16,160 bases of DNA, taken from a virus. Taxonomy: Duplodnaviria; Heunggongvirae; Uroviricota; Caudoviricetes. The stretch lies in IMG/VR virus record IMGVR_UViG_2744054631_000001; one strand, 5' to 3'. A model generated the notes under the pieces. That model saw nothing but the letters and a program-made list of their open reading frames with translations. It had not been told where the DNA came from and did not search any database. Shown here piece after piece: positions 1 to 16,160 of the stretch. The position numbers and the translations under genes are program-made. Position 1 is the stretch's first letter. Each line of letters starts with the position of its first letter.

Positions 1-105
1 TTTCACACGAAGGTCGATGCGGCGGCCAAATCGTTGTAAATCCCCGTAAAGGCAGATGCGCGCCATGCCCGGTGACGCCAGAGGGAGTGTGTGCGTCGCT
101 GCCAT
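1..105 (-). CDS. I: tail assembly protein I, N-terminal fragment (gene runs off the window start)
   Basis: Minus-strand ATG at about 103-105 translates MAATHTLPLASPGMARICLYGDLQRFGRRIDLRVK, matching the lambda gpI N-terminus as recalled. It overlaps the 3' end of K in another frame, as in lambda. Only 35 codons are in the window, so it is absent from the ORF track. Confidence 0.6.
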   Translation of the reverse strand, partial: MAATHTLPLASPGMARICLYGDLQRFGRRIDLRVK

Positions 106-746
106 TTGTCGGTGTACCTCTCTCGTTTGCTCAGTTGTTCAGGAATATGGTGCAGCAGCTCGCCATCACCACAGTAAATGGCGGCATGATTCGGCACCGA
201 TGAACCAAAACAGCACAGCAGCACATCGCCCGGTTGTGCTGATGACAACGGCACCTGATACAGCCCTGTGGCCTCCAGATTATCCAGATAGAGATTCTGG
301 CCGTTACGCCACCAGTCATCCTCACGATGAAAGTCCGGCATCTCAATCCCCGCCAGATGATAAGCATCCCGGAACAGTGTGTAACAGTCCGTCACACCGT
401 GCTCAAAGCGCCGCCCGGTGAGATGCGGCACACAGCGGAACTTATGAATCGTCCCCCGGCAGACCAGCCACCACGGCAAATCACTCTGCACCTGCAGCCG
501 CCGGTCGGCCTCACTCAGCCAGGGCAGACCACCGGGATGGCTGTGCACCAGCGCCACAATCTCACCCTGCATTTCTGCCCGCAACCAGTCCTCCGGCGAC
601 ATCCGGAAATACTCCTCCGGCTCACCAGAGATATTTACGCAGGGAAGATATCTGTCTCCCTCCGGCGTTCTCACCACAAAGCCGCACGACTCCGCTGGCG
701 CACATCGCCGGGCGTGCGCCAGAATCGCTGATTCTGTCTCTGTCAT
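3..746 (-). CDS. K: tail assembly protein K (MPN/JAB metalloprotease-like domain plus NlpC/P60-like domain)
   Basis: 247-aa ORF in the track. It carries a JAMM-type motif (HSHPGGLPWLSEAD, i.e. HxH-x7-S-x2-D) and a C-terminal Cys/His peptidase-like region, and sits directly downstream of L. The canonical lambda annotation, as I recall it, starts at the internal Met (coordinate 602, 199 aa); the longer form is needed for a complete MPN fold. Confidence 0.85.
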   Translation of the reverse strand: MTETESAILAHARRCAPAESCGFVVRTPEGDRYLPCVNISGEPEEYFRMSPEDWLRAEMQGEIVALVHSHPGGLPWLSEADRRLQVQSDLPWWLVCRGTIHKFRCVPHLTGRRFEHGVTDCYTLFRDAYHLAGIEMPDFHREDDWWRNGQNLYLDNLEATGLYQVPLSSAQPGDVLLCCFGSSVPNHAAIYCGDGELLHHIPEQLSKRERYTDKWQRRTHSLWRHRAWRASAFTGIYNDLAAASTFV

Positions 747-751
747 GGGAT

Positions 752-1450
752 TTACTGCGAAAGTTTGTTAATGGAAAGGAAGCCGCCAAAGTTGCCGACG
801 TTATTGCGGAACTTACAGCCACTCAGGCATTTGCTGCATTTATCCTTCGTGATATCGGACGTCGGCTGGTCATATTCATCCGCGACCGCCGGACCGTTAT
901 AACCGCACTCATCACCGCGATAGGTCCAGGTGCAGGTATTAGCCAGCATGATGCGCCCCGGAAAAACGGCACCATCCGTTTCCGTCGGTGTGGACAGTAC
1001 AAAAGAGGCACTGACCGCGCTCAGTTCGCTGCACTGCTCGATGCGCCAGCGGCTGATCACCTCCTGCTCCGGATCGGCGTCGCTGTTTCCGTTGACGAAG
1101 TTCACCGCATCCAGAAAACGGGCGTAAACCTTACGCCGGACCACCGTTCCGCCGACCAGACTCTGCAGATCTTCCGCCATCCCGGTGACCATACCGTACA
1201 GGTTAGAAACCGTCAGCGTGGGGCGCGTACTGGTGCCTTTACCATTCAGTTCAAAACCACTCCCCTGAATGGGATACGCCTGATACTGCCGCCCCTGCCA
1301 GGTGACCGGCTCACCTTTTTCGTTCTGCTCATTACAGAAAAAATAACGTTCTCCACCAACCTCTGTCAGATCGATTTCCCAGAGCACCACGCTGGCCGAC
1401 TGCTCCGCACGGGTGCATTCATTCAGTGTTTCCTGTCGGATATCCTGCAT
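752..1450 (-). CDS. L: tail tip assembly protein L
   Basis: 232-aa ORF matching lambda gpL in length and sequence as recalled (MQDIRQETLNECTRAEQSASVVLWEIDLTEV...). It has the C-terminal Cys cluster and overlaps M by 1 nt. Confidence 0.9.
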   Translation of the reverse strand: MQDIRQETLNECTRAEQSASVVLWEIDLTEVGGERYFFCNEQNEKGEPVTWQGRQYQAYPIQGSGFELNGKGTSTRPTLTVSNLYGMVTGMAEDLQSLVGGTVVRRKVYARFLDAVNFVNGNSDADPEQEVISRWRIEQCSELSAVSASFVLSTPTETDGAVFPGRIMLANTCTWTYRGDECGYNGPAVADEYDQPTSDITKDKCSKCLSGCKFRNNVGNFGGFLSINKLSQ

Positions 1451-1779
1451 CAGTTCACCACCTGTTCAAACTCTGCGCTGAACTCAACACGCAACATACT
1501 GACCCGCGACGACCATTTTGCGCAGGTCACCTTTATCTGCCGGTAGCCATAAGGCGGCGTCCACAGAAAGGCCTTCCAGCCCCCGTGCTCAGCCAGAAAC
1601 GACTCCAGCGCCGCGGCCTCCCAACGGGGAACAGAAAGCGTCACGCTGTACGTTTTCAGGTCAGTGTTCAGCCCGGCAGGCGCTCGCTGGGAATAGCCAT
1701 CACCAAAGCGCACCTTTCTTACGGAAGGGGCCGAAGCCACATCCATACCGGGTTTCACTTTCCAGCGGAAGGTTTTCAT
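1450..1779 (-). CDS. M: tail tip protein M
   Basis: 109-aa ORF (MKTFRWKVKPGMDVAS...) matching lambda gpM in length and position. It overlaps the H stop by 4 nt. Confidence 0.9.
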   Translation of the reverse strand: MKTFRWKVKPGMDVASAPSVRKVRFGDGYSQRAPAGLNTDLKTYSVTLSVPRWEAAALESFLAEHGGWKAFLWTPPYGYRQIKVTCAKWSSRVSMLRVEFSAEFEQVVN

Positions 1780-4322
1780 CGTCCACCTCCGGAGAACAGA
1801 CCACCATCGCGCATCTGCCCGGTCACAACATCCATTGCCGCCTTACGGGCTACGTCATAAACAGTCTTCAGCGCCTGTGGCCCTATCTGACCGTTCGTGC
1901 CGTCGTTGTTAATCACCACATGGTTATTCTGCTCAAACTTCCCGGACGCCTGCGACCGGCTGTCCGCCATACTGCCCGGTGTACCGACATAACCACCGGT
2001 GGCATAGCCGCGCATAAGCCGGTAGAGATTCCCCACGCCAATCCGACTGGTTGCCTCCTTCGTGAAGACAAATTCACCACGGTGAACAATCCCCGCTGGC
2101 TCATATTTGCCGCCGGTTCCCGTAAATCCTCCGGTCGCAAAATGGAATTTCGCCGCAGATGCCTGAATGGCTGTACCGCCTGACGCTGATGCACCGCCAA
2201 TGACACTGCCGACACTCCCGACGATCCCCACCATTGCCTGCTTAAGCAGAATTTCTGTCATCATGGACAGCACGGAACGGGTGAAGCTGCGCCAGTTCTG
2301 TTCACTGCCGGTCAGCATCGCCGCCATATTCTGTGCAATACCATCAAAGGTCTGCGTGGCAGCACTTTTAACCTGCGACATACTGTCCGTGGCACTCTCT
2401 TTCCACTCGCTCCAGCCGGACTTCAGGCCAGCCATCCAGCTCCCGCGAAGCTGGTCTTCAGCTGCCCAGGTCTTTTTCTGCTCTGACAAGACGTTATTCA
2501 GCGCCAGCGGATTATCGCCATACTGTTCCTTCAGACGCTGTTCCGTAGCTTCCCACGCTGCCTGCCGGTCAGTCACCCCCCGGCTTTTCGCATCAATGGC
2601 TGCCCGTTTTGCCCGTTGCTGCTGTGCGAATTTATCCGCCTGCTGCGCCAGCGCGTTCAGGTGCTCCTGATACGTGACCTTATCGCCAAGTGCAGCCAGC
2701 TGGCGTTTGTACTCCAGCGTCTCATCTTTATGCGCCAGCAGGGATTTCTCCTGTGCGGACAGCTGGCGACGTTGTGCCGCCTCCTCCAGTACCGCGAACT
2801 GATTTTCCGCCTTCCATAAATCCCGGCGCTGCTGGCTGATTTTCTCATTCGCTCCGGCATGCTTCTCCAGCGTCCGGAGTTCTGCCTGAAGCGTCAGCAG
2901 GGCCGCATGAGCACTGTCTTCCTGACGATCGCCCGCAGACACCTTCACGCCGGACTGTTTCGGCTTTTTCAGCGTCGCTTCATAATCCTTTTTCGCCGCC
3001 GCCATCAGCGTGTTGTAATCTGCCTGCAGGATTTTTCCGTCTTTCAGTGCCTTATTCAGTTCTTCCTGACGGGCGGTATATTTCTCCAGCGGCGTCTGCA
3101 GGCGTTCGTAAGCCTTCTGCGCCTCTTCGGTATATTTCAGCCGTGACGCTTCGGTATCGCTCTGCTGCTGCGCATTTTTGTCCTGTTGAGTCTGCTGCTC
3201 AGCCTTCTTTCGGGCGGCTTCAAGCGCAAGACGGGCCTTTTCACGATCATCCCAGTAACGCGCCCGCGCTTCATCGTTAACAAAATAATCATCCTTGCGC
3301 AGATTCCAGATGTCGTCTGCTTTCTTAAACGCAGCCTCTGCCTTAATCAGCATCTCCTGCGCGGTATCAGGACGACCAATATCCAGCACCGCATCCCACA
3401 TGGATTTGAATGCCCGTGCTGTCCTGTCTGCCCAGGTCTCCAGCGTGCCCATGTTCTCTTTCAGGCGGCGGGTCTGGTCATCAAATCCTTTCGTTGCGGC
3501 CTCGTTCGCCGCCTGCAATGCCCCGGCCTCATCGCCGGAACGCTGCAACTGAGCAACATACGCAATCTGCTCCGCCGTCACGTTATGGAACTGACGCGCC
3601 ATCGCTGTCAGCCCTGACGTCGGGTCTGTGGTCAGCTTCCCGAAGGCTTCAGCGACCTTGTCCACCTCCACGCCGGATGCAGAGGAGAAACGCGCCACAC
3701 TCTGGCTGATGGACGCAATCTGAGCCTCACCGCTTACCCCCGCCTTAACCAGTGCGCTGAGTGACTCGCTGGTCTGGTTAAACGTCAGCCCTGCCGCCTG
3801 CCCGGCTCTGGACAGGGCCAGCATACGATCTGCCGTCAGTCCCGCCTGATTACCGGAAAGGACCAGCGTTTTATTGAAATTGGACAGGGTTGAGTCACCC
3901 TGATACCAGGCATACGCCAGCGCACCGGTCGCCACCGCCAGCGAGGTGGCCCCCACCATCGGCAGGGTGATCGCACCGGCAAGCCCCCTGAACATGGGGA
4001 TCATCCCGCCGAAGGAGTCCTTCACCTGACCACCCTGTTGCAGCAGGATAAGCCACGGATTCTGCCCCCCTGCAAGCTGCGTGGCCACGTCGGTGAACTG
4101 CGCAGGCAGCATACGCATGGCAGCTTTATACTGCCCGACGGAAATCCCCGCTTTCTGTGCAGCCAGCGCCTGCCGGTTCATTGACTGTTCAACGACTGCC
4201 GCTGTTTTTTTCGCATCACTTTCCGTACCGGAAAAATGACGCCTGACTCTGGCCATCTGCTCGTCAAATCTGGCCGCATCCAGACTTAAATCAACGACCA
4301 GATCGCCTACCGGTTCAGCCAT
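1776..4322 (-). CDS. H: tail tape measure protein H
   Basis: 848-aa ORF with the long coiled-coil, Ala/Gln/Lys-rich composition and Gly-rich C-terminal region typical of tape measure proteins. The N-terminus (MAEPVGDLVVDLSLDAARFDEQ...) matches lambda gpH as recalled; lambda is 853 aa. Confidence 0.9.
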   Translation of the reverse strand: MAEPVGDLVVDLSLDAARFDEQMARVRRHFSGTESDAKKTAAVVEQSMNRQALAAQKAGISVGQYKAAMRMLPAQFTDVATQLAGGQNPWLILLQQGGQVKDSFGGMIPMFRGLAGAITLPMVGATSLAVATGALAYAWYQGDSTLSNFNKTLVLSGNQAGLTADRMLALSRAGQAAGLTFNQTSESLSALVKAGVSGEAQIASISQSVARFSSASGVEVDKVAEAFGKLTTDPTSGLTAMARQFHNVTAEQIAYVAQLQRSGDEAGALQAANEAATKGFDDQTRRLKENMGTLETWADRTARAFKSMWDAVLDIGRPDTAQEMLIKAEAAFKKADDIWNLRKDDYFVNDEARARYWDDREKARLALEAARKKAEQQTQQDKNAQQQSDTEASRLKYTEEAQKAYERLQTPLEKYTARQEELNKALKDGKILQADYNTLMAAAKKDYEATLKKPKQSGVKVSAGDRQEDSAHAALLTLQAELRTLEKHAGANEKISQQRRDLWKAENQFAVLEEAAQRRQLSAQEKSLLAHKDETLEYKRQLAALGDKVTYQEHLNALAQQADKFAQQQRAKRAAIDAKSRGVTDRQAAWEATEQRLKEQYGDNPLALNNVLSEQKKTWAAEDQLRGSWMAGLKSGWSEWKESATDSMSQVKSAATQTFDGIAQNMAAMLTGSEQNWRSFTRSVLSMMTEILLKQAMVGIVGSVGSVIGGASASGGTAIQASAAKFHFATGGFTGTGGKYEPAGIVHRGEFVFTKEATSRIGVGNLYRLMRGYATGGYVGTPGSMADSRSQASGKFEQNNHVVINNDGTNGQIGPQALKTVYDVARKAAMDVVTGQMRDGGLFSGGGR

Positions 4323-4749
4323 ACCGGACTCCTCCTGCGATCCCTTCTGATACTGTCATCAGCATTACGTCATCCTCCGTCATGTCCGCCACATACGGGG
4401 AAGCGGGGATAACTTCATTCCCGTCCGGGCCAAAACGAACGCCTCCGGCAAGCCCTGCCGCTTTCTGCATCAGCACATCATCTTCAGGCTCTTCGTCAGC
4501 CTCACGCCGGTTCAGCAGACTGAAATCCAGCGGATGCATCTCCGGATCGCTGAAAAACAGGCTGAGCACGGTGTACGTCAGCCCGGAAAAGTGCATATCC
4601 AGCAGAACATCATGAAAATAATGGGTACTGTAAAAACGGTGCCAGTCGGCATACTCCGTGGATGACATCCCGGCAAGCATGGCGCGCCAGTCGGGTCGCC
4701 CCATCTCACGCGCCAGTTTCAGGGCAAAACTCAGCTCACCGTCGAACAC
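4315..4749 (-). CDS. T: tail assembly chaperone T frame, made as the G-T fusion by programmed -1 ribosomal frameshift
   Basis: 144-codon ORF in the -1 frame relative to G, beginning at the G slippery site and overlapping the start of H. The track labels its first codon M, but it is GTG at the slip site, so this is not an independent start. Confidence 0.85.
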   Translation of the reverse strand: MFDGELSFALKLAREMGRPDWRAMLAGMSSTEYADWHRFYSTHYFHDVLLDMHFSGLTYTVLSLFFSDPEMHPLDFSLLNRREADEEPEDDVLMQKAAGLAGGVRFGPDGNEVIPASPYVADMTEDDVMLMTVSEGIAGGVRYG

Positions 4750-5153
4750 TTTCCCGCAGAAACAGGCTCTGCAGGCCCGGCGTCATCTGCCTGTTCAGGG
4801 GAATTATTCACCACAAACTCAGACATTCCGGACAGACGTAACACCACGTTTTCAGCCTGAGCAATTGCCTCCGTGGGCCAGGTGGTAAGCACTTCCTGCT
4901 CAATCTGCGTAATGGCTTCATTCATGGACGGCAGCTTTGTCTTCTGCGGATGGTTATGCCACAGAGACATCGCCACCAGAAACGCCCCGCCTCTGATAAG
5001 ATCCTCTACAGACACCTGCAGGTTGCCGCTGGATTCAGCCTTTTTTTCCTGCTCTTTCAACCAGGCAAGATGCTCAATACGCTGCAGGGCTGACAGTTCA
5101 GAAAGCGTGACGGTCACGCCGTTATATTCAAATGATTCGGTTTTCAGGAACAT
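4731..5153 (-). CDS. G: tail assembly chaperone G
   Basis: 140-aa ORF (MFLKTESFEYNGVTVTLSEL...) matching lambda gpG in length. The slippery heptamer G GGA AAG lies 6 codons before its stop. Confidence 0.9.
   Translation of the reverse strand: MFLKTESFEYNGVTVTLSELSALQRIEHLAWLKEQEKKAESSGNLQVSVEDLIRGGAFLVAMSLWHNHPQKTKLPSMNEAITQIEQEVLTTWPTEAIAQAENVVLRLSGMSEFVVNNSPEQADDAGPAEPVSAGKCSTVS
4749..4755 (-). promoter_or_regulatory. programmed -1 frameshift slippery heptamer GGGAAAG (G to G-T recoding site)
   Basis: Plus strand reads ctttccc at 4749-4755, which is GGGAAAG on the coding strand in G frame G GGA AAG. The downstream ORF T is in the -1 frame. Confidence 0.85.
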
Positions 5154-5168
5154 CGCTGACTCTCCGGA

Positions 5169-5909
5169 TTAGCTGGCGGTGACGGTGATTTCTGCAACCG
5201 CAGCAAACTCACCATTACCGGATACAACCGGAATGTTGACCTTGCCTGCGGCAACGCCGTTCACGGTGATGGTCATACCACTGACCGACACGGTGGCTTT
5301 TGTTTTATCCGAAGACACCGCACGGAAGCTCTTGTCGGTTACGCCTTCCGGCTGGAATGCCACGGTCAGCGTGGTGCTCTGCCCTTTCACTACGGACGCA
5401 CTGGCTGGCGTTACCGTCATGCCGGTTGCCGCCGTCACCGTACTGCGATCTTCAGCCATCGACGGGCGTCCCACATTGGTGACCTTCACCGTGCGGGTGA
5501 TCACTTCCTTCGCCGTCACCGCCTTACCGATACTGCTGACCCAGCCACGGAACACATCGACCGTGCCGTTCGGAAAGCGGATTTTATAGGCACGGGTATC
5601 ACCTTCATTAAACCACGCCAGCAGCGCCTGCTGCCCCTGCTCTCCGGGCATCCACGCCAGCGTGAAGCTGGTATCTCCGGCAGATTTCTGCCCCTGCCCG
5701 GTCGCAGTCCAGTCCGCATCCTCATCATCGAGATAGCTGTCTTCATAGGACTCAGCGGTCAGTTCGCCGGGCGTCAGGTCTTTAACTTTTGCCAGACGCG
5801 ACCAGTCAACGTCTGAAAGCGGGTTCGCATAAGGGTCACCGTTCCCCTTATAAACCCACAGTGTGGTCCCGGCACCTTTCACCGGCATTGTTGGATTTGG
5901 TACAGGCAT
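5169..5909 (-). CDS. V: major tail tube protein V with C-terminal Ig-like domain
   Basis: Track ORF is 5169..5939. I place the start at the internal [22 protein letters not shown] (246 aa, the lambda gpV length), which is preceded by a GAGGA Shine-Dalgarno. The C-terminal roughly 90 aa are Thr/Val-rich, consistent with the known Ig-like domain of gpV. Confidence 0.9.
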
Positions 5910-5916
5910 AGCGTCC

Positions 5917-6312
5917 TCACATTTCATAGGTAATGACATAAGTCAGATCGGCTGAACTCCACAGGCCCGCATCATCGTCGCGCCGGTAGTCATAGCCACT
6001 GGCCACCATACTGGTGATCAAATCTGACAGTGCCGGGACATCGCTCATCACCGGATAAATTCGGGACTCCATCCACGAATCCAGCTCTGAATCCGGCACC
6101 TGAGCAGGCAGGAAAACTTCAATATGCAGCTCCGCCTGCCAGGTATCACTGTCCAGCTCTTCGCCCGTGTATTCAGCGCCGGTGAGATAAACGGCAATTG
6201 CCGGAAAATCCGCCTCATCAAAAACAGCGGGGCGACCATCAAAAAGCGTCGCCCCGGTGTCATGCTTCTCCAGTGCATCCAGTACGGCTGCACGGAGTTC
6301 AGTATGTTTCAT
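5917..6312 (-). CDS. U: tail terminator protein U
   Basis: 131-aa ORF ([26 protein letters not shown]...) matching lambda gpU in length. Its start overlaps the Z stop (ATGA). Confidence 0.9.
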
Positions 6313-6887
6313 CGCTTTATTACCATCCTCAGTTGATGCTGCAGCGCATAGCCCAGCTCTTTCGGAAGACGTTCACGCCGTATCCGTTCAATATTCTGTT
6401 TAAACGCCGTGGTCAGCGGCACCGCCATCGGGATTTTCACCACATCAATGGGGTAACGGTTTTTCCCGGCCACACGCTGCATGACATGCCACCGGCCATT
6501 TTTCAGTTGCTGAATAAACGCGCCGGGAATACGACGGTTTCCCACCACAAGCACGCTGCCGCCACCTTTCAGGGATGAACGCTGCCCCTTTTTACGACGT
6601 CTGCGGCGGGAAAGGACAACCCGCGCGTTACCCAGCTTGATTACGGGCAAATCCCCCCGGTTAACCCTGATTCTGGCCTGCGGATTTTTGACCGTGGCCC
6701 TTTTCAGCCTGGCCCTTTCCTTTACCAGTTTCCGGCGTACCTTTGTCTCACGGGCAACCTGTGCCACCGACTGCGATATCGCGGATGAAGCAACGCGGTT
6801 AATGGCCATTGCGGCGGCACCGGGCACCGCCGTTCTGCTGATACGGCTTAGGTTTTCAACGGCCTGCTCAAGACCTTTTATGGCCAT
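6309..6887 (-). CDS. Z: tail completion protein Z
   Basis: 192-aa basic ORF (MAIKGLEQAVENLSRISRTAVPGAAAMAINRV...) matching lambda gpZ in length and position. Confidence 0.9.
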   Translation of the reverse strand: MAIKGLEQAVENLSRISRTAVPGAAAMAINRVASSAISQSVAQVARETKVRRKLVKERARLKRATVKNPQARIRVNRGDLPVIKLGNARVVLSRRRRRKKGQRSSLKGGGSVLVVGNRRIPGAFIQQLKNGRWHVMQRVAGKNRYPIDVVKIPMAVPLTTAFKQNIERIRRERLPKELGYALQHQLRMVIKR

Positions 6888-6898
6888 ACATCCCCCTT

Positions 6899-7252
6899 TC
6901 AGCGGCGACGGTTAACGGCAGGCGGTACGCCCCGCCCAAGCCAGAGATGACAGCTTCCGCCATCATCCGGCGAAACCCGGTCTATCCAGAAGTTTTCCTC
7001 ACCGATGGTCAGCGTGTCGCCGCGCCGCAGCTGCCGCACCTCATCAGTCCGGACAAACAGGGACGGGCTGGAGCCTTCAACGCGCACGCCCTGTCCGGCA
7101 TAGCTGATATTTTCAGGGTCATCAAAAACACCACGTATCACAGCACCGGACTGCTCACCGGATGTCATGGTGGCTGACGTTCCCATGTACCCGCGTATCG
7201 TTTCATCGGCGCAGGCAATGGCAGCATCGAACAGGTTATCGAAATCAGCCAC
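6899..7252 (-). CDS. FII: head-tail connector protein FII
   Basis: 117-aa ORF (MADFDNLFDAAIACADETIRGYMG...) matching lambda gpFII in length. It lies 12 nt downstream of FI. Confidence 0.9.
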   Translation of the reverse strand: MADFDNLFDAAIACADETIRGYMGTSATMTSGEQSGAVIRGVFDDPENISYAGQGVRVEGSSPSLFVRTDEVRQLRRGDTLTIGEENFWIDRVSPDDGGSCHLWLGRGVPPAVNRRR

Positions 7253-7263
7253 AGCGCCTCCCG

Positions 7264-7659
7264 TTATTGCATTCTGGCCAGGCCGCGCTCTGTCATTTCA
7301 GCTGCCACACCGGCAGAGACACGGAACGCCGTTCCCGGCAGCACAAATGCCACAGCCTCATCCCGCGTGGCGTGAAGTGCATCAGTATGCAGCGTCACCA
7401 GTGCCACAACCGTGACCAGATCAGCCGTATCAGTCACGGTATCCGGCTGCGCTGATACCACCTCATTTTCATGCCCGGTCAGCGCATTTTCCGGGCTGAC
7501 AGATGTGTCCTGACCGGCAGCGTCATCCGTGTCATTAAGCTCCTCTTCCAGCTCTGCCACACGGAGTGCCAGTTCTTCTTTCGTCCCCGTTAGGCTGACA
7601 TCACGGTTCAGTTGCTCACCCAGCACCTGAAGACGGGCAATCAGTTCATCTTTCGTCAT
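7264..7659 (-). CDS. FI: head completion / DNA-packaging accessory protein FI
   Basis: Track ORF is 7264..7698. I place the start at the internal MTKDELIARLQVLGEQLNRDV..., which is preceded by a strong GGAGGAG Shine-Dalgarno and matches the lambda E-FI spacing of 42 nt. Confidence 0.85.
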   Translation of the reverse strand: MTKDELIARLQVLGEQLNRDVSLTGTKEELALRVAELEEELNDTDDAAGQDTSVSPENALTGHENEVVSAQPDTVTDTADLVTVVALVTLHTDALHATRDEAVAFVLPGTAFRVSAGVAAEMTERGLARMQ

Positions 7660-7700
7660 GGACTCCTCCACAGAGAGAAAATGGCCCCGAAGGGCCATGA

Positions 7701-8725
7701 TTACGCCAGTTGTACGGACACGAACGCATCAGGGTCAGCCAGCAGCATCAGCGGTGCTGACTGAATCATGGTGAACTCACGCGCCGGATCGCCGGTGGTC
7801 ACCCAGTTTTTCGGGTAGCGGGCAGAGGCGTTAATACCTTCGCGCTGTGCGTCCGCATCCTGAATGCAGCCATAGGTGCGCAGACCGCGTGCCTGAGTGT
7901 TCCCCAGCACCATCGTGTTGTCCGGCAGGAAGTTCTTTTTGACGTCGTTTTCCACGTACTGTCCGGAATACACGACGATCGCCGTATCGCCATACCTCCC
8001 CTTATAGGACACCGCTTCGCCCAGGTCTTTTACCGCAGTCTCCAGCTCGGAATTAGAGCCGCGACGGGTATCCAGCTTCTCCTTGACGGCTTTGAAGGAA
8101 CGGAACAGCGCCCAGCCTTTCGGATCAAACACGATGATGTTCACCACACCGCTGGCGTTCAGCGCGTAGGCTTCGATATCGTCGGTCGGGTCATACGTGG
8201 ACTTGTCACGCTTGCTCCACTCCGTGCCACCGGACTGTGTGATGTTGTTCGCCGCACTGCGGCCCATATCCACCTCAACCGGATCGAAGGCTTCACCGGT
8301 CATGGTGTATTTGCCCTTGAGCACAGCAGAAACTGCCTGCATCTCTTCGACCTGAGCAATGGCAAGCTCCTCATCACGCATGTTTTGCATGATGATGCGA
8401 CGGCGGCGGTAAGCCGGATCCGCCAGATTCTGTGGATCTTCATCCGGCAGGCGACGCAGGGTCATCTGCGGATTCACCTCATGCTTCGGCTTGACATATC
8501 CCGGCGTAAATTCAGAGGTGGAGCCACCACGGGAGCGGATAACCTCACCGGAAACAATTGGCGAAACGTACAACGCCATGTTTACCAGTCCCGGAATTTG
8601 TGAGAGATAGACTTTCTCCGTGGTGAAGGGATAGCTCTCACGGAAAAGAGACGCAGAAACAGCGGATCAAACTTAAATTTCTTCTCATTTGCCGCCAGCA
8701 GCTGGGCGGTTGTGTACATCGACAT
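7701..8725 (-). pseudogene. E: major capsid protein E, reading frame disrupted by a 1-nt deletion near codon 27
   Basis: The track ORF 7701..8579 (292 aa) begins at the Met that is residue 50 of lambda gpE (MALYVSPIVSGEV...). The true N-terminus (MSMYTTAQLLAANEKKFKFDPLFLRLF...) is encoded from an ATG at about 8725 in a different frame and stops after 47 codons. The D-E spacing (56 nt) matches lambda, but the gene spans 1025 nt instead of 1026. The shift maps to the A-run at about 8644-8647 on the plus strand (T4 on the coding strand where T5 is needed). Confidence 0.7.
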
Positions 8726-8738
8726 AAAAAAATCCCGT

Positions 8739-8759
8739 AAAAAAAGCCGCACCGGCGGC
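8739..8759 (-). terminator. GC-rich hairpin followed by a U-run between D and E (intrinsic-terminator-like)
   Basis: Minus-strand RNA would read AAAGGCCGC-CGGU-GCGGCUUUUUUU: a 5-bp GC stem (extendable by A-U and G-U pairs), a 4-nt loop and a 7-U tract. It lies between the D stop (8781) and the E start (8725). Confidence 0.35.
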
Positions 8760-8780
8760 CTTTAGTGATGAAGGGTAAGG

Positions 8781-9113
8781 TTAAACGATGCTGATTGCCG
8801 TTCCGGCAAACGCGGTCCGTTTTTTCGTCTCGTCGCTGGCAGCCTCCGGCCAGAGCACATCCTCATAACGGAACGTGCCGGACTTGTAGAACGTCAGCGT
8901 GGTGCTGGTCTGGTCAGCAGCAACCGCCAGAATGCCAACGGCAGCACCGTCGGTGGTGCCATCCCACACAACCAGCTTACGGGTGGAGGTGTCCAGCATC
9001 AGCGGGGTCATTGCAGGCGCTTTCGCACTCAATCCGCCGGGCGCGGTTGCCGTATGTGCCGGGTCACTGTTGCCCAGCGGCTGGTAATGGGTAAAGGTTT
9101 CTTTGCTCGTCAT
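8781..9113 (-). CDS. D: head decoration protein D
   Basis: Track ORF is 8781..9119. I place the start at [27 protein letters not shown]... (110 aa, the lambda gpD length), 10 nt after the C stop with an AAGGGA Shine-Dalgarno. Confidence 0.9.
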
Positions 9114-9122
9114 AAACATCCC

Positions 9123-9728
9123 TTACACTGGTGTGTTCAGCAAATCGTTAACGGCATCAGATGCCGGGTTACCTGCAGCCAGCGGTGCCGGTGCCCCCTG
9201 CATCAGACGATCCAGCGCAGTGTCACTGCGCGCCTGTGCACTCTGTGGTGCAGCTGCCAGAATGCGGCGGGCCGTTTCCACGGTCATACCGGGGGTTTCG
9301 GCCAGCACGCGTGCCTGTTCTTCGCGTCCGTGAGCCTCCTCACAGTTGAGGATCCCCATAATGCGGCTGTTTTCTGCCGCAACCGCTGCGGTGATCTGCG
9401 CGTTCACATCCGGCTGCGCCGCGCTGGCGTTTTTGCCCTCCGTCGCTTGCACCACGCCAGTAACGTCAGCCTGCGAAGCAGTGGCTGAAACAGTTGTTGA
9501 TTGAGTCTCTTTGGTCATTCGCCCTCCTGAGAGACGGGATTTACGTGTATCCAGTGCATCACGCATGACGGTGATCGCATCGGTACTGTTAACAAGTTCA
9601 TCAGCCAGTCCGGCATCAATGGCCTCCTGACCGCTGTACACTGCAGCCTCGGTATCCAGCACAGCCTGCACGGACAGGCCGGTATATGCCGATACCTTCT
9701 GTGCAAACATCCGGCGGGTTGCATCCAT
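9123..9728 (-). CDS. Nu3: scaffolding protein Nu3, nested in-frame in the 3' part of C
   Basis: An internal in-frame ATG at 9726-9728 (MDATRRMFAQKVSAYTGL...) lies 714 nt after the C start, as for lambda Nu3. It shares the C stop and has an acidic, Ala-rich composition typical of scaffolds. Confidence 0.6.
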   Translation of the reverse strand: MDATRRMFAQKVSAYTGLSVQAVLDTEAAVYSGQEAIDAGLADELVNSTDAITVMRDALDTRKSRLSGGRMTKETQSTTVSATASQADVTGVVQATEGKNASAAQPDVNAQITAAVAAENSRIMGILNCEEAHGREEQARVLAETPGMTVETARRILAAAPQSAQARSDTALDRLMQGAPAPLAAGNPASDAVNDLLNTPV

Positions 9729-10422
9729 CCGGGACTGCAGTGTTTCCCGGACATCATCCGGTAGATGGCTGTAGGGGTTGCCATCCACCTTATGGCTGCC
9801 GCTGTAAATCAGCGTGATTTCCACGCCCTGTTTCTCCAGCGCAGCGCCGTAATTACTGTGAGCCATCATGACGCCGATGGAGCCTGTCCGGGCGGTCTGC
9901 GTGACCAGACGCCGGGAGGCGGCACTGGCAAGCAGCTGACCTGCACTGCAGTTCATGTCGTTGGCCAGCGCCCATACCGGTTTTATGTCACGCACACGGG
10001 CGATGATGTCAGCGCAGTCAAATGCCCCCGCCACCATCCCGCCGGGCGTGTCCATATCGAGCAGAATGCCGTCCACCATCGGATCGCTGGCAGCCTGTTG
10101 CAGACGGGCGATAATGCCGTTGTAACCGGTCATCCCCGAATACGGCTGCAGCGCCCGCGTCCGGCTGACCAGCGTGCCGGAAACCGGCAGCACGGCGATG
10201 CCGTTCATGACCTGATAACTGCGGGCCTGTCGTGGTCCGTCATCATCACCGGATAACGCCAGCGTCGCGGGTGTCTCCGGGGCAGTCAGGCTGTCACCGG
10301 ACACCGCATCTGTCAGGCGGCTGATCCCAAGCTGGCCTGCTAGCGCACAAAAGAAAACCCGCGCATAGGCGGGTTCAAGCATCAGCGGCTCATTAAAGGC
10401 CATGCTGGCAATATGCGGGAGA

Positions 10423-10442
<20 letters not shown>
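9123..10442 (-). CDS. C: head maturation protease C
   Basis: Track ORF is 9123..10556. I place the start at the GTG of VTAELRNLPHIASMAFNEPLMLEP..., which is preceded by AGGAGG 6 nt upstream. This gives 439 aa (the lambda gpC length) and the lambda-like 20-nt overlap with the B stop. Confidence 0.85.
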
Positions 10443-14123
<3,681 letters not shown>

Positions 14124-14149
<26 letters not shown>

Positions 14150-14669
14150 TCAGCAACCCCGGTATCAGTTCATCCAGTGCGGCTGCTTTGTTCATGGCTT
14201 TGATGATATCCCGTTTCAGGAAATCAATATGTCGGTTTTCCAGTTCCGGAAAACGCCGCTGCACCGACAGGGGGATCCCGTCGAGAATACTGGCAATTTC
14301 ACCTGCGATCCGCGACAGCACGAAAGTACAGAATGCGGTTTCCACCACTTCAGCGGAGTCTCTGGCATTCTTCAGTTCCTGTGCGTCGGCCTGCGCACGC
14401 GTAAGTCGATGGCGTTCGTACTCAATAGTCCCTGGCTGGAGATCTGCCTCGCTGGCCTGCCGCAGTTCTTCAACCTCCCGGCGCAGCTTTTCGTTCTCAA
14501 TTTCAGCATCCCTTTCGGCATACCATTTTACAACGGCGGCAGAGTCATAAAGCACCTCATTACCCTTGCCACCGCCTCGCAGAACGGGCATTCCCTGCTC
14601 CTGCCAGTTCTGAATGGTACGGATACTCGCACCGAAAATGTCAGCCAGCTGCTTTTTGTTGACTTCCAT
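14124..14669 (-). CDS. Nu1: terminase small subunit Nu1
   Basis: 181-aa ORF (MEVNKKQLADIFGASIRTIQNWQEQGMPVLRGGGKGNEVLYDSAAV...) with an N-terminal winged-HTH DNA-binding region. It is the first gene downstream of cos, as in lambda. Confidence 0.92.
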
Positions 14670-14689
14670 TGTTCATTCCACGGCCAAAA

Positions 14690-14895
14690 ACAGAGAAAGG
14701 AAACGACAAAGGCCAAAAAGCCCGTTTTCAGCACCTGTCGCTTCCTTTCTTTTCAGAGGGTATTTTAAATAAAAACATTAAGTTATGACGAAGAAGAACG
14801 GAAACGCCTTAAACCGGAAAATTTTCATAAATAGCGAAAACCCGCGAGGTCGCCGCCCCGTAACCTGTCGGATCGCCGGAAAGGACCCGCAAAAT
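14690..14895 (-). other. cos packaging site (cosB with R-type terminase-binding repeats, cosN, cosQ)
   Basis: The plus strand reads aggtcgccgccc at about 14847-14858, the reverse complement of the lambda 12-nt cohesive end GGGCGGCGACCT. It is flanked by cgtaacctgtcg (right-end side). Nu1-binding-type repeats lie between cosN and Nu1: ggaaacgacaaagg at about 14698-14711, its inverted copy acctgtcgcttcc at about 14733-14745, and gacgaagaagaacggaaacgcc at about 14788-14809. Confidence 0.85.
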
Positions 14896-15057
14896 GATAA
14901 TAATTATCATCTGCATGTCACAACGTGCATCTACGCCATCAAACCACGTCAAATAATCAATTATGACGCAGGTATCATATTAATTGATCTGCATCAACTT
15001 AACGTAAAAACAACTTCAGACAATACAAATCAGCGACACTGAATACGGGACAACCTC

Positions 15058-15291
15058 ATGTCAACGAAGAACAGAACCCGCAGAACAACAACCCGCAACA
15101 TCCGCTTTCCTAACCAAATGATTGAACAAATTAACATCGCTCTTGATCAAAAAGGGTCCGGGAATTTCTCAGCCTGGGTCATTGAAGCCTGCCGCCGAAG
15201 ACTGTGCTCAGAAAAAAGAGTTTCGCCTGAAGCAAACAAAGAAAAGAGTGACATTACTGAATTGCTCAGAAAGCAGGTCAGACCAGATTGA
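15058..15291 (+). CDS. small hypothetical protein, possible ribbon-helix-helix DNA-binding protein
   Basis: 77-aa ORF on the strand opposite the late operon. After a very basic N-terminus (MSTKNRTRRTTTRN) it shows a beta-strand / helix / G-S-G turn / helix pattern (IRFPNQMIEQINIALDQKGSGNFSAWVIEACRRRL) resembling an RHH fold. The assignment rests on pattern only. Confidence 0.5.
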   Translation: MSTKNRTRRTTTRNIRFPNQMIEQINIALDQKGSGNFSAWVIEACRRRLCSEKRVSPEANKEKSDITELLRKQVRPD

Positions 15292-15348
15292 AGCAATTTA
15301 GATAATCGTGCAGACTAGGTACCTTCATATCACATGGAAGGTACTACA

Positions 15349-15759
15349 ATGGCTCAGGTTGCCATTTTTAAACAAATATTCGATAAAGTGCGAAATAATT
15401 TAAACTATCACTGGTTTTATTCTGAACTAAAACGTCACAATGTCTCACATTACATTTACTATTTAGCCACAGAGAATATTCATCTTGTTCTTGAAAACGA
15501 TAATACGGTTTTAATAAAAGGACAGGGTAAGGTTGTAAATGTAAGATTTTCAAAAAATAAATGCCTTATAGAAGCCACATTAAAAGGATTCAAATCAGGA
15601 GAGTTATCATTTTACGAATACAGGAAAAATCTTGCTACAGCAGGGGTTTTCAGATGGATTACAAATATCCACGAAAACAAAAGGTATTACTATACCTTTG
15701 ATAATTCATTACTCTTTACTGAGAACATTCAGAACACTACACAAATATTTCCGCACTAA
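15349..15759 (+). CDS. hypothetical protein from an AT-rich accessory (moron-like) gene
   Basis: Track ORF is 15334..15759. The likely start is the second ATG ([17 protein letters not shown]...), preceded by GGAAGG about 8 nt upstream. The region is markedly AT-rich and rich in Asn/Tyr/Lys/Ile compared with the GC-rich structural genes. It may correspond to the uncharacterised protein family found beside bor in lambdoid prophages, but I recall this only vaguely. Confidence 0.55.
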
Positions 15760-16160
15760 ATCATAACGTCCGGTTTCTTCCGTGCCAGAACCGGACTCGC
15801 TGGCATGATGAAATATGTGTACCCGGTAACCCCGGTGTGCATCGTTTTTGATTATTCCCGCACACTCGCGCAGAAGGAGTTCCCCGTCGGGCTACGGTCT
15901 CTGTTAATACGGGAATACGGCGACGATACAGCGCATGATGTGTCAGGCTTGAATACCTTTATCCTTTAAAAGGGATATCAGTTAAGTTATCCCGTGTAGG
16001 TATAAGCCATTATCAAAGCCACTCTGTAGGGAATGGCTTTTGTGATGGCATCACTTACTCTTTACGCTGCTATCCCACTCATCCCGGAATTTTGATGGGT
16101 TATTGAAACCTTCTGCTGACATAACAACTCCTTCAATGTTTGAACCGCCCCGGAAATCCT

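Follow-up and report, generated by a model that had tools for sequence, protein, structure and literature searches.

In the Qin prophage of Escherichia coli K-12, nohA adjoins ynfO (b4533) and ydfO (b1549), genes of 234 and 411 nt separated by a 57-bp spacer. The right arms of lambda and of prophage DLP12 carry the series ylcI, ybcW (lambdap79), ybcV (lambdap78), and bor, and phage BP-4795 has YnfO without a DUF1398 protein. The structure of YdfO, structural-genomics target ER251, was solved by solution NMR (PDB 2HH8), an entry that carries no functional annotation. For the orthologous K-12 DNA, the documented regulatory sites are those bound by the host factors Fur and PdhR. The "nohA −233" site was chosen by Chen et al. 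as a predicted Fur-controlled promoter and verified by gel shift (PMC2189734), and AACAGGTCAGACCAGAT is listed among PdhR sites from genomic SELEX, in the region ynfO>ydfO<gnsB (PMC7660256). We present here the analysis of a cos-adjacent gene pair in a 16,160-nt stretch of tailed-phage DNA (IMG/VR record IMGVR_UViG_2744054631_000001), referred to as a whole as the window. By its sequence, the pair is the already named and annotated ynfO and ydfO of lambda-like prophages and not a new system.

Results

The phage to which the window belongs appears intact: Nu1, A, and the portal and head genes are all complete. A (12224 to 14149) and Nu1 (14124 to 14669; Pfam Phage_Nu1, 2e-100) lie on the minus strand, Nu1 directly left of cosN, whose 12-nt cohesive-end sequence (AGGTCGCCGCCC, the reverse complement of the lambda cohesive end) was located at 14847 to 14858 by exact string match. 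cosN forms the boundary between the minus-strand late operon and an accessory region, and beyond it ynfO and ydfO are carried on the strand opposite Nu1 and A. An initial annotation of this DNA had described two ORFs here, opposite to the late operon, of 77 aa and then 136 to 141 aa, the second rich in Asn and Tyr; both were confirmed, and the features it listed are present at or near the positions it gave. The GC content is 0.57 at 1 to 14669, 0.40 at 14860 to 15057, 0.45 in ynfO, 0.31 in ydfO, and 0.47 at 15760 to 16160. The switch to AT-rich DNA that had been placed immediately beyond cos is therefore real in extent (0.57 to 0.31), but it is graded, with the sharp fall in ydfO, the only strongly AT-rich gene, and not right at cos. 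Both ORFs are real genes and not chance, given the probability of a stop-free run of 136 codons at ydfO's own base composition (1.3e-5), matches to curated families, and dN/dS values of 0.08 to 0.35.

The first gene, ynfO (15058 to 15291, plus strand), encodes a 77-aa basic protein (pI 10.55; 11 Arg, 6 Lys) of the YlcI/YnfO family (DUF3950), with matches above the family cutoffs in Pfam (PF13132, 5e-21; 74.6 bits versus 25) and NCBIfam (NF041551, 6.7e-9; 35.7 bits versus 30). Its context, a lambdoid prophage with the gene on the opposite strand in the interval between lysis and terminase genes, is typical of the family. The protein is 96 to 97% identical to E. coli YnfO clusters, and the gene is under purifying selection (dN/dS 0.08 against the BP-4795 copy, dS 0.92). 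The N-terminal 50 residues are almost invariant, and the C-terminal tail is variable and differs between lineages.

Residues 13 to 50, approximately, are probably a ribbon-helix-helix (RHH) DNA-binding domain. A single-chain AF2 model places helices at 19 to 32 and 37 to 54, preceded by an extended basic N terminus; hhalign sets the YnfO motif NIRFPNQ in register with FNLRWPRE of Arc (P = 0.0075), and a PHROG search returned a HicB-like match at 0.007. Sequence and profile searches of YnfO against the PDB gave no match, and Foldseek with the YnfO model gave nothing significant, the best being TCP-domain proteins at E of about 7. Relative to Arc/Mnt/CopG-type RHH repressors and RHH antitoxins, YnfO thus lacks a statistically significant sequence or structure match, and the RHH fold, which the initial annotation had guessed from the residue pattern, is moderately supported.

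The second gene, ydfO (15349 to 15759, plus strand), encodes a 136-aa protein of the DUF1398 (YdfO/YbcV/YcgX) family with 15 Asn and 10 Tyr residues. It matches Pfam PF07166 over its full length (3e-43; 147 bits, cutoff 22; profile positions 1 to 119 of 119) and PDB 2HH8, of the same family and length, over residues 1 to 140 (E = 1.4e-69). An alternative start at 15334 would give 141 aa, so that the gap to ynfO is 42 bp at the first ATG and 57 bp at the second. The second ATG (15349) is the likely start, since it is preceded by a GGAAGG Shine-Dalgarno sequence at 15336 to 15341 and RefSeq annotates the 136-aa form. A 9-bp spacer hairpin that would sequester this Shine-Dalgarno sequence was dismissed as chance (z = −1.6; not conserved in Qin). 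Copies of ydfO are 100% identical in 80 IMG/VR contigs, and comparison with diverged copies indicates purifying selection (dN/dS 0.21 to 0.35).

No catalytic residues are conserved across DUF1398, which makes a binding or modulator protein more likely than an enzyme. A function based on fold was abandoned: the AF2 model of YdfO is poor (pLDDT 54) and reproduces 2HH8 badly (TM 0.41), and all other Foldseek matches of the model had E values of 0.7 or more. An internal duplication, in which the protein would consist of two units of one helix and three strands as the AF2 secondary structure hinted, was also rejected (halves score 29 against a shuffled mean of 25.7; p = 0.25). The listing of ydfO as "essential only by TraDIS" (PMC5821084) was not taken as essentiality, since paralogues of ydfO exist and no explanation in its support is offered in that paper.

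Several database labels would instead make the DUF1398 protein part of the virion. PHROG 413 is labeled "head protein," and the lambda orthologue appears as "head protein" in RefSeq phage records and as "putative envelope protein" in older ones. Against these labels, ydfO is not part of the head gene block and runs counter to the late operon, and the DUF1398 gene is nonessential for lambda plaque formation. YdfO also has neither a signal peptide nor a hydrophobic segment (maximum Kyte-Doolittle 19-residue mean, 0.39) and is predicted to be soluble and cytoplasmic. DUF1398 homologues also occur as lone chromosomal genes far from phage genes, and the protein is not known as a component of the lambda virion. 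Both labels are unsupported, and we regard a structural or envelope role as scarcely credible.

Annotated prophages match the window at 99.9% identity. The ynfO-ydfO junction is present in 2,173 of 5,426 complete E. coli genomes (about 40%), and DNA from the ynfO-ydfO region matches 4,894 of the 5,426. Qin has the same gene order, orientation, gene lengths, and spacer as the window, and in both the two genes share one reading frame. Nucleotide identity from cos to ydfO is 93%; YnfO is 97% identical (75 of 77 residues) and YdfO about 76%, the window ydfO being a diverged allele (dS 0.70). Qin also has the Fur-box palindrome at −233 from the nohA/Nu1 ATG and the hairpin after the genes. The two differ in that Qin is a remnant and the window phage apparently intact, and their downstream DNA is unrelated (gnsB in Qin). 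The expectation of a conserved but uncharacterized lambdoid right-arm region, and nothing new, was borne out as a Qin-type ynfO-ydfO pair.

A YnfO-YdfO fusion protein (P0134, 233 aa, 761 members; also P0130) was set aside, as it equals Qin DNA with the ynfO TGA read as Trp. The Qin ynfO-ydfO frame has no other stop, whereas the window spacer has an additional in-frame TAG. The P0134 "fusion" was most likely caused by gene calling with an alternative genetic code on short contigs.

In lambda and DLP12, as in the window, homologous DUF3950 and DUF1398 genes adjoin cos opposite the late genes, and the noncoding DNA from cos to the first gene and after the DUF1398 gene is homologous. Unlike the window, they carry ybcW/lambdap79 on the opposite strand between the pair, a shorter YlcI (64 aa) whose tail is different, and a downstream bor gene. 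BP-4795 differs further, with an HNH plus TerS/TerL packaging module and unrelated DNA upstream of ynfO. The genome scan for distant DUF1398 loci used a narrower alignment, the broad DUF1398 alignment being too diverse.

Between cos and ynfO lies a Fur-box cluster (14890 to 14914) containing the perfect palindrome ATGATAAT-A-ATTATCAT (14894 to 14910), orthologous to the K-12 "nohA −233" site, with coordinates transferred from K-12 by alignment. It matches 16 of 19 consensus positions, the best site of the whole window on both strands, and its center at 14902 is 233 bp from the Nu1 ATG, the distance reported for nohA (PMC2189734). A consensus scan placed a predicted sigma-70-like site, GTGACA-16-TATCAT (14894 to 14921, minus strand; 10 of 12 matches), over the Fur box, directed at cos and Nu1 and away from ynfO. 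Because this site faces Nu1, Fur may control the opposite direction, on the Nu1 side, and not ynfO. A PdhR-box-like palindrome, AGCAGGTCAGACCAGAT (15272 to 15288), was found by string match inside ynfO at its 3′ end, 61 bp ahead of the ydfO start codon, and differs by one base from its K-12 orthologue. The cassette had been credited with signals of its own; consensus scans of the plus strand found no sigma-70-like promoter upstream of ynfO or ydfO and no canonical intrinsic terminator after ydfO, where the hairpin lacks a T-run, so the sequence by itself does not show such signals.

The inverted repeat noted earlier after the larger ORF is present at 15768 to 15796. It forms a plus-strand hairpin directly after the ydfO stop (GTCCGGTT/AACCGGAC, 15768 to 15775 and 15789 to 15796), with a perfect 8-bp stem, a 13-nt loop, and no T-run, and folds at −15.2 kcal/mol (z = −2.0). 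The Qin stem is kept by a compensatory T>C/A>G pair (−21.7 kcal/mol, z = −5.4); the hairpin is weaker in lambda and DLP12 (about 6 pairs) and does not form in BP-4795. The single Qin pair is the only covariation evidence, as the 80 loci retrieved from IMG/VR are essentially identical. The hairpin is possibly a 3′-end or stability element. Alignment with HK629, DLP12, and BP-4795 defined a conserved noncoding block at 15797 to 15940, which in lambda and DLP12 lies between the DUF1398 gene and bor and is retained here despite the absence of bor. The block covers the stretch of a promoter annotated in HK629 (1784 to 1810 of the HK629 sequence compared, with bor at 1940) and is unlikely to be coding, since copies differ by single-base indels. 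An Rfam search of 14600 to 16160 returned only a chance miRNA match (E = 0.1).

Discussion

The initial annotation had likened the pair to a toxin-antitoxin (TA) or regulator-effector cassette. Read as a type II TA system, the locus would have YnfO as both RHH antitoxin and autorepressor, and its toxin would be the DUF1398 protein. This agrees with the gene order, in which the small RHH-like protein precedes the larger one, and with the C-terminal tail of YnfO, which differs between lineages in the manner of antitoxin tails. However, the genes are separable. Homologues of YnfO are found in 155 phage records, against only 43 for DUF1398, and most YnfO-bearing records, BP-4795 among them, lack DUF1398; conversely, none of 20 distant DUF1398 loci has YnfO within 4 kb. 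The two genes are 57 bp apart here and in lambda/DLP12 are split by an opposite-strand gene and about 650 bp, which leaves neither the tight operon nor the constant co-occurrence of type II pairs. No PADLOC or TA-family model matched YnfO or YdfO (YdfO-Csx23, 0.023, is chance level), so the second protein is not of a known toxin family, and the cognate toxin of RHH antitoxins is absent from this locus. YdfO was also produced for NMR structure 2HH8, presumably in E. coli, the consortium's usual host, and ybcV in the ASKA overexpression screen gave a metabolic phenotype and was not lethal. A toxin-antitoxin pair is not supported, and we consider it very improbable; an obligate regulator-effector cassette is likewise unsupported.

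Another reading gives YnfO a role in cis on phage DNA at the lysis/terminase junction, for example in read-through across cos or in packaging, and not as a regulator of cargo genes. YnfO is constant at the junction despite differing packaging modules (lambda Nu1/A here, HNH plus TerS/TerL in BP-4795), its N-terminal 50 residues hardly vary, and capsid-forming PICI satellites are listed as further carriers of YlcI/YnfO genes (PMC13612085). The unrelated DNA upstream of ynfO in BP-4795 leaves no conserved operator evident, however, and neither NC_001416 nor J02459 so much as annotates the lambda copy. Lambda vectors from which the ynfO-ydfO region has been deleted or substituted are known to package normally. 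We hold such a role to be quite unlikely.

A phage-host conflict, in which YnfO or the DUF1398 protein acts as an anti-defense factor, a superinfection-exclusion factor, or a decoy and the cos-adjacent slot is a conflict hot spot, is somewhat less improbable than a role in cis, though still unlikely. The slot is mosaic, with cargo varying past about codon 50 of ynfO. The ybcW homologue lambdap79, located between the pair in lambda, triggers the Vulcan NADase defense, and lambda-vir escapers delete it by recombination with Qin, giving exactly the window layout (bioRxiv 10.64898/2026.09.04.749371). On the other side, YnfO and YdfO have no homology to known defense or anti-defense families, lambdap78 knockdown caused no plating defect on the strain of the CRISPRi screen (PMC10695390), and the chromosomal orphan homologues of DUF1398 suggest a role in host physiology.

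We favor, as reasonably probable, a Qin-type accessory-gene slot that is host regulated, expressed from the prophage, and of benefit to the lysogen under stress. The moron-like character proposed at the outset agrees with the atypical composition (GC of 0.31 versus 0.57), the orientation against the late genes, and the dispensability of the lambda orthologue of the DUF1398 gene, lambdap78, which is nonessential by CRISPRi (PMC10695390). This slot lies between the lysis cassette and cos of lambdoid phages and is read opposite to the late operon. The N-terminal 50 or so residues of YnfO would most likely form an RHH dimer that binds DNA, making YnfO a small transcriptional regulator whose C-terminal tail would differ with the adjoining cargo and which might regulate ydfO. 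Both genes would be dispensable for lytic growth and retained through prophage expression under host control, and the lysogen would gain from them under stress.

Host control and a stress benefit are suggested by the Fur and PdhR sites in orthologous K-12 DNA and by ydfO and ybcV mRNA that changes strongly under stress. An ionic liquid raised ydfO mRNA 117-fold, and cells overproducing YdfO are reported to resist oxidative stress better (PMC4077768); deletion of pdhR lowers ybcV mRNA 10-fold (PMC7660256), and ybcV ranks among the genes changed most by copper stress and has a higher level in a sabinene-evolved strain. These expression data all come from cryptic-prophage orthologues of K-12 and not from the window phage. 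Gene identity, conservation, purifying selection, separability, and ubiquity were shown here; Fur and PdhR binding, stress induction, and nonessentiality are drawn from published work on orthologues; and the fold and DNA binding of YnfO, any control it has over ydfO, and any gain for the host are inferences.

Both genes already have names and annotations, YdfO even has a solved structure, and many annotated prophages match this copy at 99.9% identity, so the locus has little discovery value, and nothing in the window makes the functional question newly tractable. Its value is a corrected interpretation: the pair is no TA cassette, the "head" and "putative envelope" labels of DUF1398 are unsupported, the documented inputs come from host Fur and PdhR, and the promoter predicted to be under Fur control is directed at the terminase genes. 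DUF3950 and DUF1398 are among the most widespread uncharacterized E. coli prophage genes, and a functional assignment would be broadly useful. It is conceivable, at long odds, that YnfO is an RHH regulator sensing or relaying host state in a region with Fur and PdhR inputs, that the variable cargo behind it, DUF1398 with or without ybcW/lambdap79, marks a conflict and stress hot spot near cos in which DUF1398 modulates a host pathway or defense, and that loss or gain of the intervening gene sets sensitivity to abortive infection such as Vulcan. If true, this would give a function to a family found in about 90% of E. coli genomes.

The window contains, on the minus strand, a lambda-type late operon whose 5′ end is formed by terminase A (12224-14149) and Nu1 (14124-14669; Pfam Phage_Nu1, 2e-100), bounded on its right by the 12-nt cohesive-end sequence, cosN (14847-14858). 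Beyond cosN, two plus-strand genes, ynfO (15058-15291; 77 aa, pI 10.55) and ydfO (15334 or 15349 to 15759; 141 or 136 aa, the shorter form having 15 Asn and 10 Tyr), run opposite to the late operon and precede an inverted repeat (15768-15796; perfect 8-bp stem, 13-nt loop), all at or near where the initial annotation had placed them. The likely ydfO start is 15349; a GGAAGG Shine-Dalgarno sequence is located at 15336-15341, and RefSeq has the 136-aa form. The switch to AT-rich DNA past cos, also described there, holds as a real drop in GC content, from 0.57 in the late genes to 0.40 between cos and ynfO, but strong AT-richness is confined to ydfO (0.31), with 0.45 in ynfO and 0.47 beyond ydfO. 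At the composition of ydfO, the chance probability of a 136-codon open frame is 1.3e-5. An imperfect 19-nt inverted repeat (16006-16049; 79% complementary, 6-nt spacer) lies in non-coding DNA before a minus-strand GIY-YIG nuclease gene, located just past the window end as placed in the matching prophage L001.

The ynfO product was assigned to the YlcI/YnfO family (Pfam DUF3950, 5e-21; also NCBIfam NF041551). The larger protein matched Pfam DUF1398 (3e-43) and PDB 2HH8, "ydfO protein from E. coli" (1.4e-69). Many complete E. coli genomes contain 99.9% identical prophage DNA with the genes annotated ynfO and ydfO. Some part of 14700-16160 is matched in 4894 of 5426 genomes, the Qin-type ynfO-ydfO junction is present in 2173, and ybcW is present in 1984. 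The K-12 cryptic prophage Qin displays the window's arrangement (nohA-ynfO-ydfO; 234 nt, 57-bp spacer, 411 nt), whereas the cryptic prophage DLP12 and lambda/HK629 contain both families but with the opposite-strand gene ybcW (lambdap79) between them and bor after them. As first proposed, this is a conserved lambdoid right-arm region rather than a new one: an accessory region that is well known and heavily annotated in lambdoid prophages but functionally uncharacterised. Lambda's 64-aa YlcI homologue (NC_001416 48139-48303, minus strand; J02459; HK629, L002, 389-583) is conserved and under purifying selection, yet neither the reference lambda records nor HK629/HK630 annotate it.

Both ynfO and ydfO are real genes. 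For ydfO, dN/dS is 0.21-0.35 at dS 0.38-0.70 (versus Qin and DLP12); for the N-terminal 50 codons of ynfO, it is 0.08 at dS 0.92 (versus phage BP-4795). The N-terminal ~50 residues of YnfO are almost invariant, whereas its C-terminal tail comes in several unrelated forms; it is therefore within ynfO that a recombination boundary separates the cos-proximal block from the variable cargo. An 85-aa plus-strand ORF (14785-15042) spans cosN and matches PHROG 9395 (5e-26), so some phage annotations list it as a protein. This ORF is probably spurious, because it crosses the cohesive-end site and overlies highly conserved non-coding DNA.

The two genes had been likened to a toxin-antitoxin or regulator-effector cassette, and they prove separable. 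By tblastn over phage records, YnfO homologues were found in 155 and DUF1398 homologues in only 43; of the two genes, Stx-converting phages and BP-4795 have ynfO only, lying between Rz and an HNH/TerS/TerL packaging module. Distant DUF1398 homologues, ~30-35% identical to the window protein, occur at 20 loci (L085-L104) in Kluyvera, Klebsiella, Pseudocitrobacter, Raoultella, and Salmonella diarizonae, surrounded by ordinary chromosomal genes; within 4 kb of them, neither YnfO nor Nu1 has a homologue. In K-12, ycgX is a further DUF1398 paralogue that stands alone (PMC3509220). The distant genes (e.g., L096 4001-4393 and L099 4001-4396) are single and preceded by long ORF-poor stretches, and their unrelated chromosomal contexts (Kluyvera, Klebsiella, Salmonella diarizonae, Raoultella) suggest that the DUF1398 gene inserted by itself repeatedly and independently. 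Neither YnfO nor YdfO matched defence or toxin-antitoxin models, which together with separate occurrence speaks against a two-gene functional unit or toxin-antitoxin pair.

The two genes share one reading frame (15058-15759, frame 1), separated in Qin by the ynfO TGA alone and in the window by a second in-frame stop as well (TAG, 15316-15318). Metagenome-catalogue "fusion" proteins (cluster P0134, 761 members) have Trp at the ynfO TGA. A YnfO-YdfO fusion was rejected: gene calling under an alternative genetic code is the probable source of these proteins, and stop-codon read-through in Qin may be an alternative one.

YnfO is quite probably a ribbon-helix-helix (RHH) protein, on evidence consistent in direction and weak in statistics. 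AF2 (pLDDT 67) predicted that the basic N-terminus is extended and that helices 19-32 and 37-54 come after it. Using hhalign against a small, manually entered Arc/Mnt/CopG/NikR/ParD/RelB alignment, T-R-N-I-R-F-P-N-Q of YnfO fell in register with Q-F-N-L-R-W-P-R-E of Arc with the Gly turn aligned, at a P of only 0.0075, and PHROGs gave a weak HicB-like match (0.007). These three analyses lean towards the RHH-like pattern first noted; sequence searches of PDB and Foldseek found no match. By tblastn, two small satellite-like elements, L106 (2501-2659; Pasteurella Pmp7) and L107 (2501-2674; vB_KppS-Ant), gave weak matches to YnfO (38-40% identity, E = 1e-4 to 2e-7). These lie on the strand opposite the annotated genes and may reflect either chance similarity or small RHH genes that have escaped annotation.

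DUF1398 proteins are labelled "head protein" (PHROG 413, RefSeq phage records) or "putative envelope protein" (older lambda records). Neither label fits: the gene runs antisense to the late operon, CRISPRi showed its lambda copy to be non-essential (PMC10695390), no hydrophobic segment is present in the protein, and homologues are also found outside prophages. Upon ionic-liquid shock, ydfO mRNA rose 12-fold (array) and 117-fold (qPCR), and YdfO overexpression is cited as raising oxidative-stress resistance (PMC4077768); ydfO was among four Qin genes responding to DicC induction (PMC11430063). Overexpression of ybcV altered glycogen accumulation (PMC2853380). Expression of ybcV was among the most strongly changed under copper stress and was up in a sabinene-adapted strain. 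These studies, all of orthologues, do not define a biochemical function.

The cassette had been credited with its own signals; simple scans found neither a plus-strand sigma-70-like promoter nor a canonical terminator. A perfect palindrome, ATGATAAT-A-ATTATCAT (14894-14910), at the start of the interval first delineated, matches the Fur consensus (16/19) better than any other site in the window, where it is unique, and is part of an overlapping cluster. It is centred 233 bp from the Nu1 ATG, precisely where K-12 has the "nohA" Fur site, which has 22.3 bits and was confirmed by gel shift by Chen et al.; the DLP12 copy, "nohB", has 25.3 bits (PMC2189734). The window cluster is orthologous to both of these gel-shift-verified sites. 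A minus-strand sigma-70-like site, GTGACA-16-TATCAT (10/12), overlaps the candidate Fur site and faces cos and Nu1; cluster and promoter-like site together span 14890-14921. If they act in the intact phage, transcription starting in the prophage and entering the terminase and head genes might respond to iron. Inside the ynfO 3′ end, AGCAGGTCAGACCAGAT (15272-15288) resembles a PdhR site; the orthologous K-12 sequence is a PdhR site by genomic SELEX, and DLP12 ybcV mRNA is 10-fold lower in a pdhR mutant (PMC7660256). The hairpin after ydfO, which lacks a T-run, is preserved in Qin by a compensatory change (−21.7 kcal/mol, z = −5.4) and has weaker counterparts in lambda and DLP12. A non-coding block of ~140-170 nt (window 15797-15940; L002 1690-1830; L105 3440-3590) is common to the window phage, lambda/HK629, DLP12, and BP-4795 whatever the flanking genes, including where bor is absent (window and BP-4795). 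It has no Rfam match, and its lambda version covers a stretch with an HK629-annotated promoter upstream of bor.

The ynfO-ydfO region is most probably neither a toxin-antitoxin module nor a structural gene; it is a named, annotated accessory region of lambdoid prophages. Most likely, YnfO would act as a small RHH-type regulator, and the DUF1398 protein would be cytoplasmic cargo, mobile independently of YnfO, with expression of both genes controlled by the host and lytic growth depending on neither. Every lambda-vir escaper of the Vulcan NADase defence lost lambdap79 via recombination with Qin (bioRxiv 10.64898/2026.09.04.749371), and this recombination leaves ynfO and ydfO adjacent, as they are in the window. 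The Vulcan trigger is lambdap79, the gene that the window lacks, and not ynfO or ydfO. Since escapers recombine with Qin at this slot, it is an actively mosaic region on which host defences exert selection.
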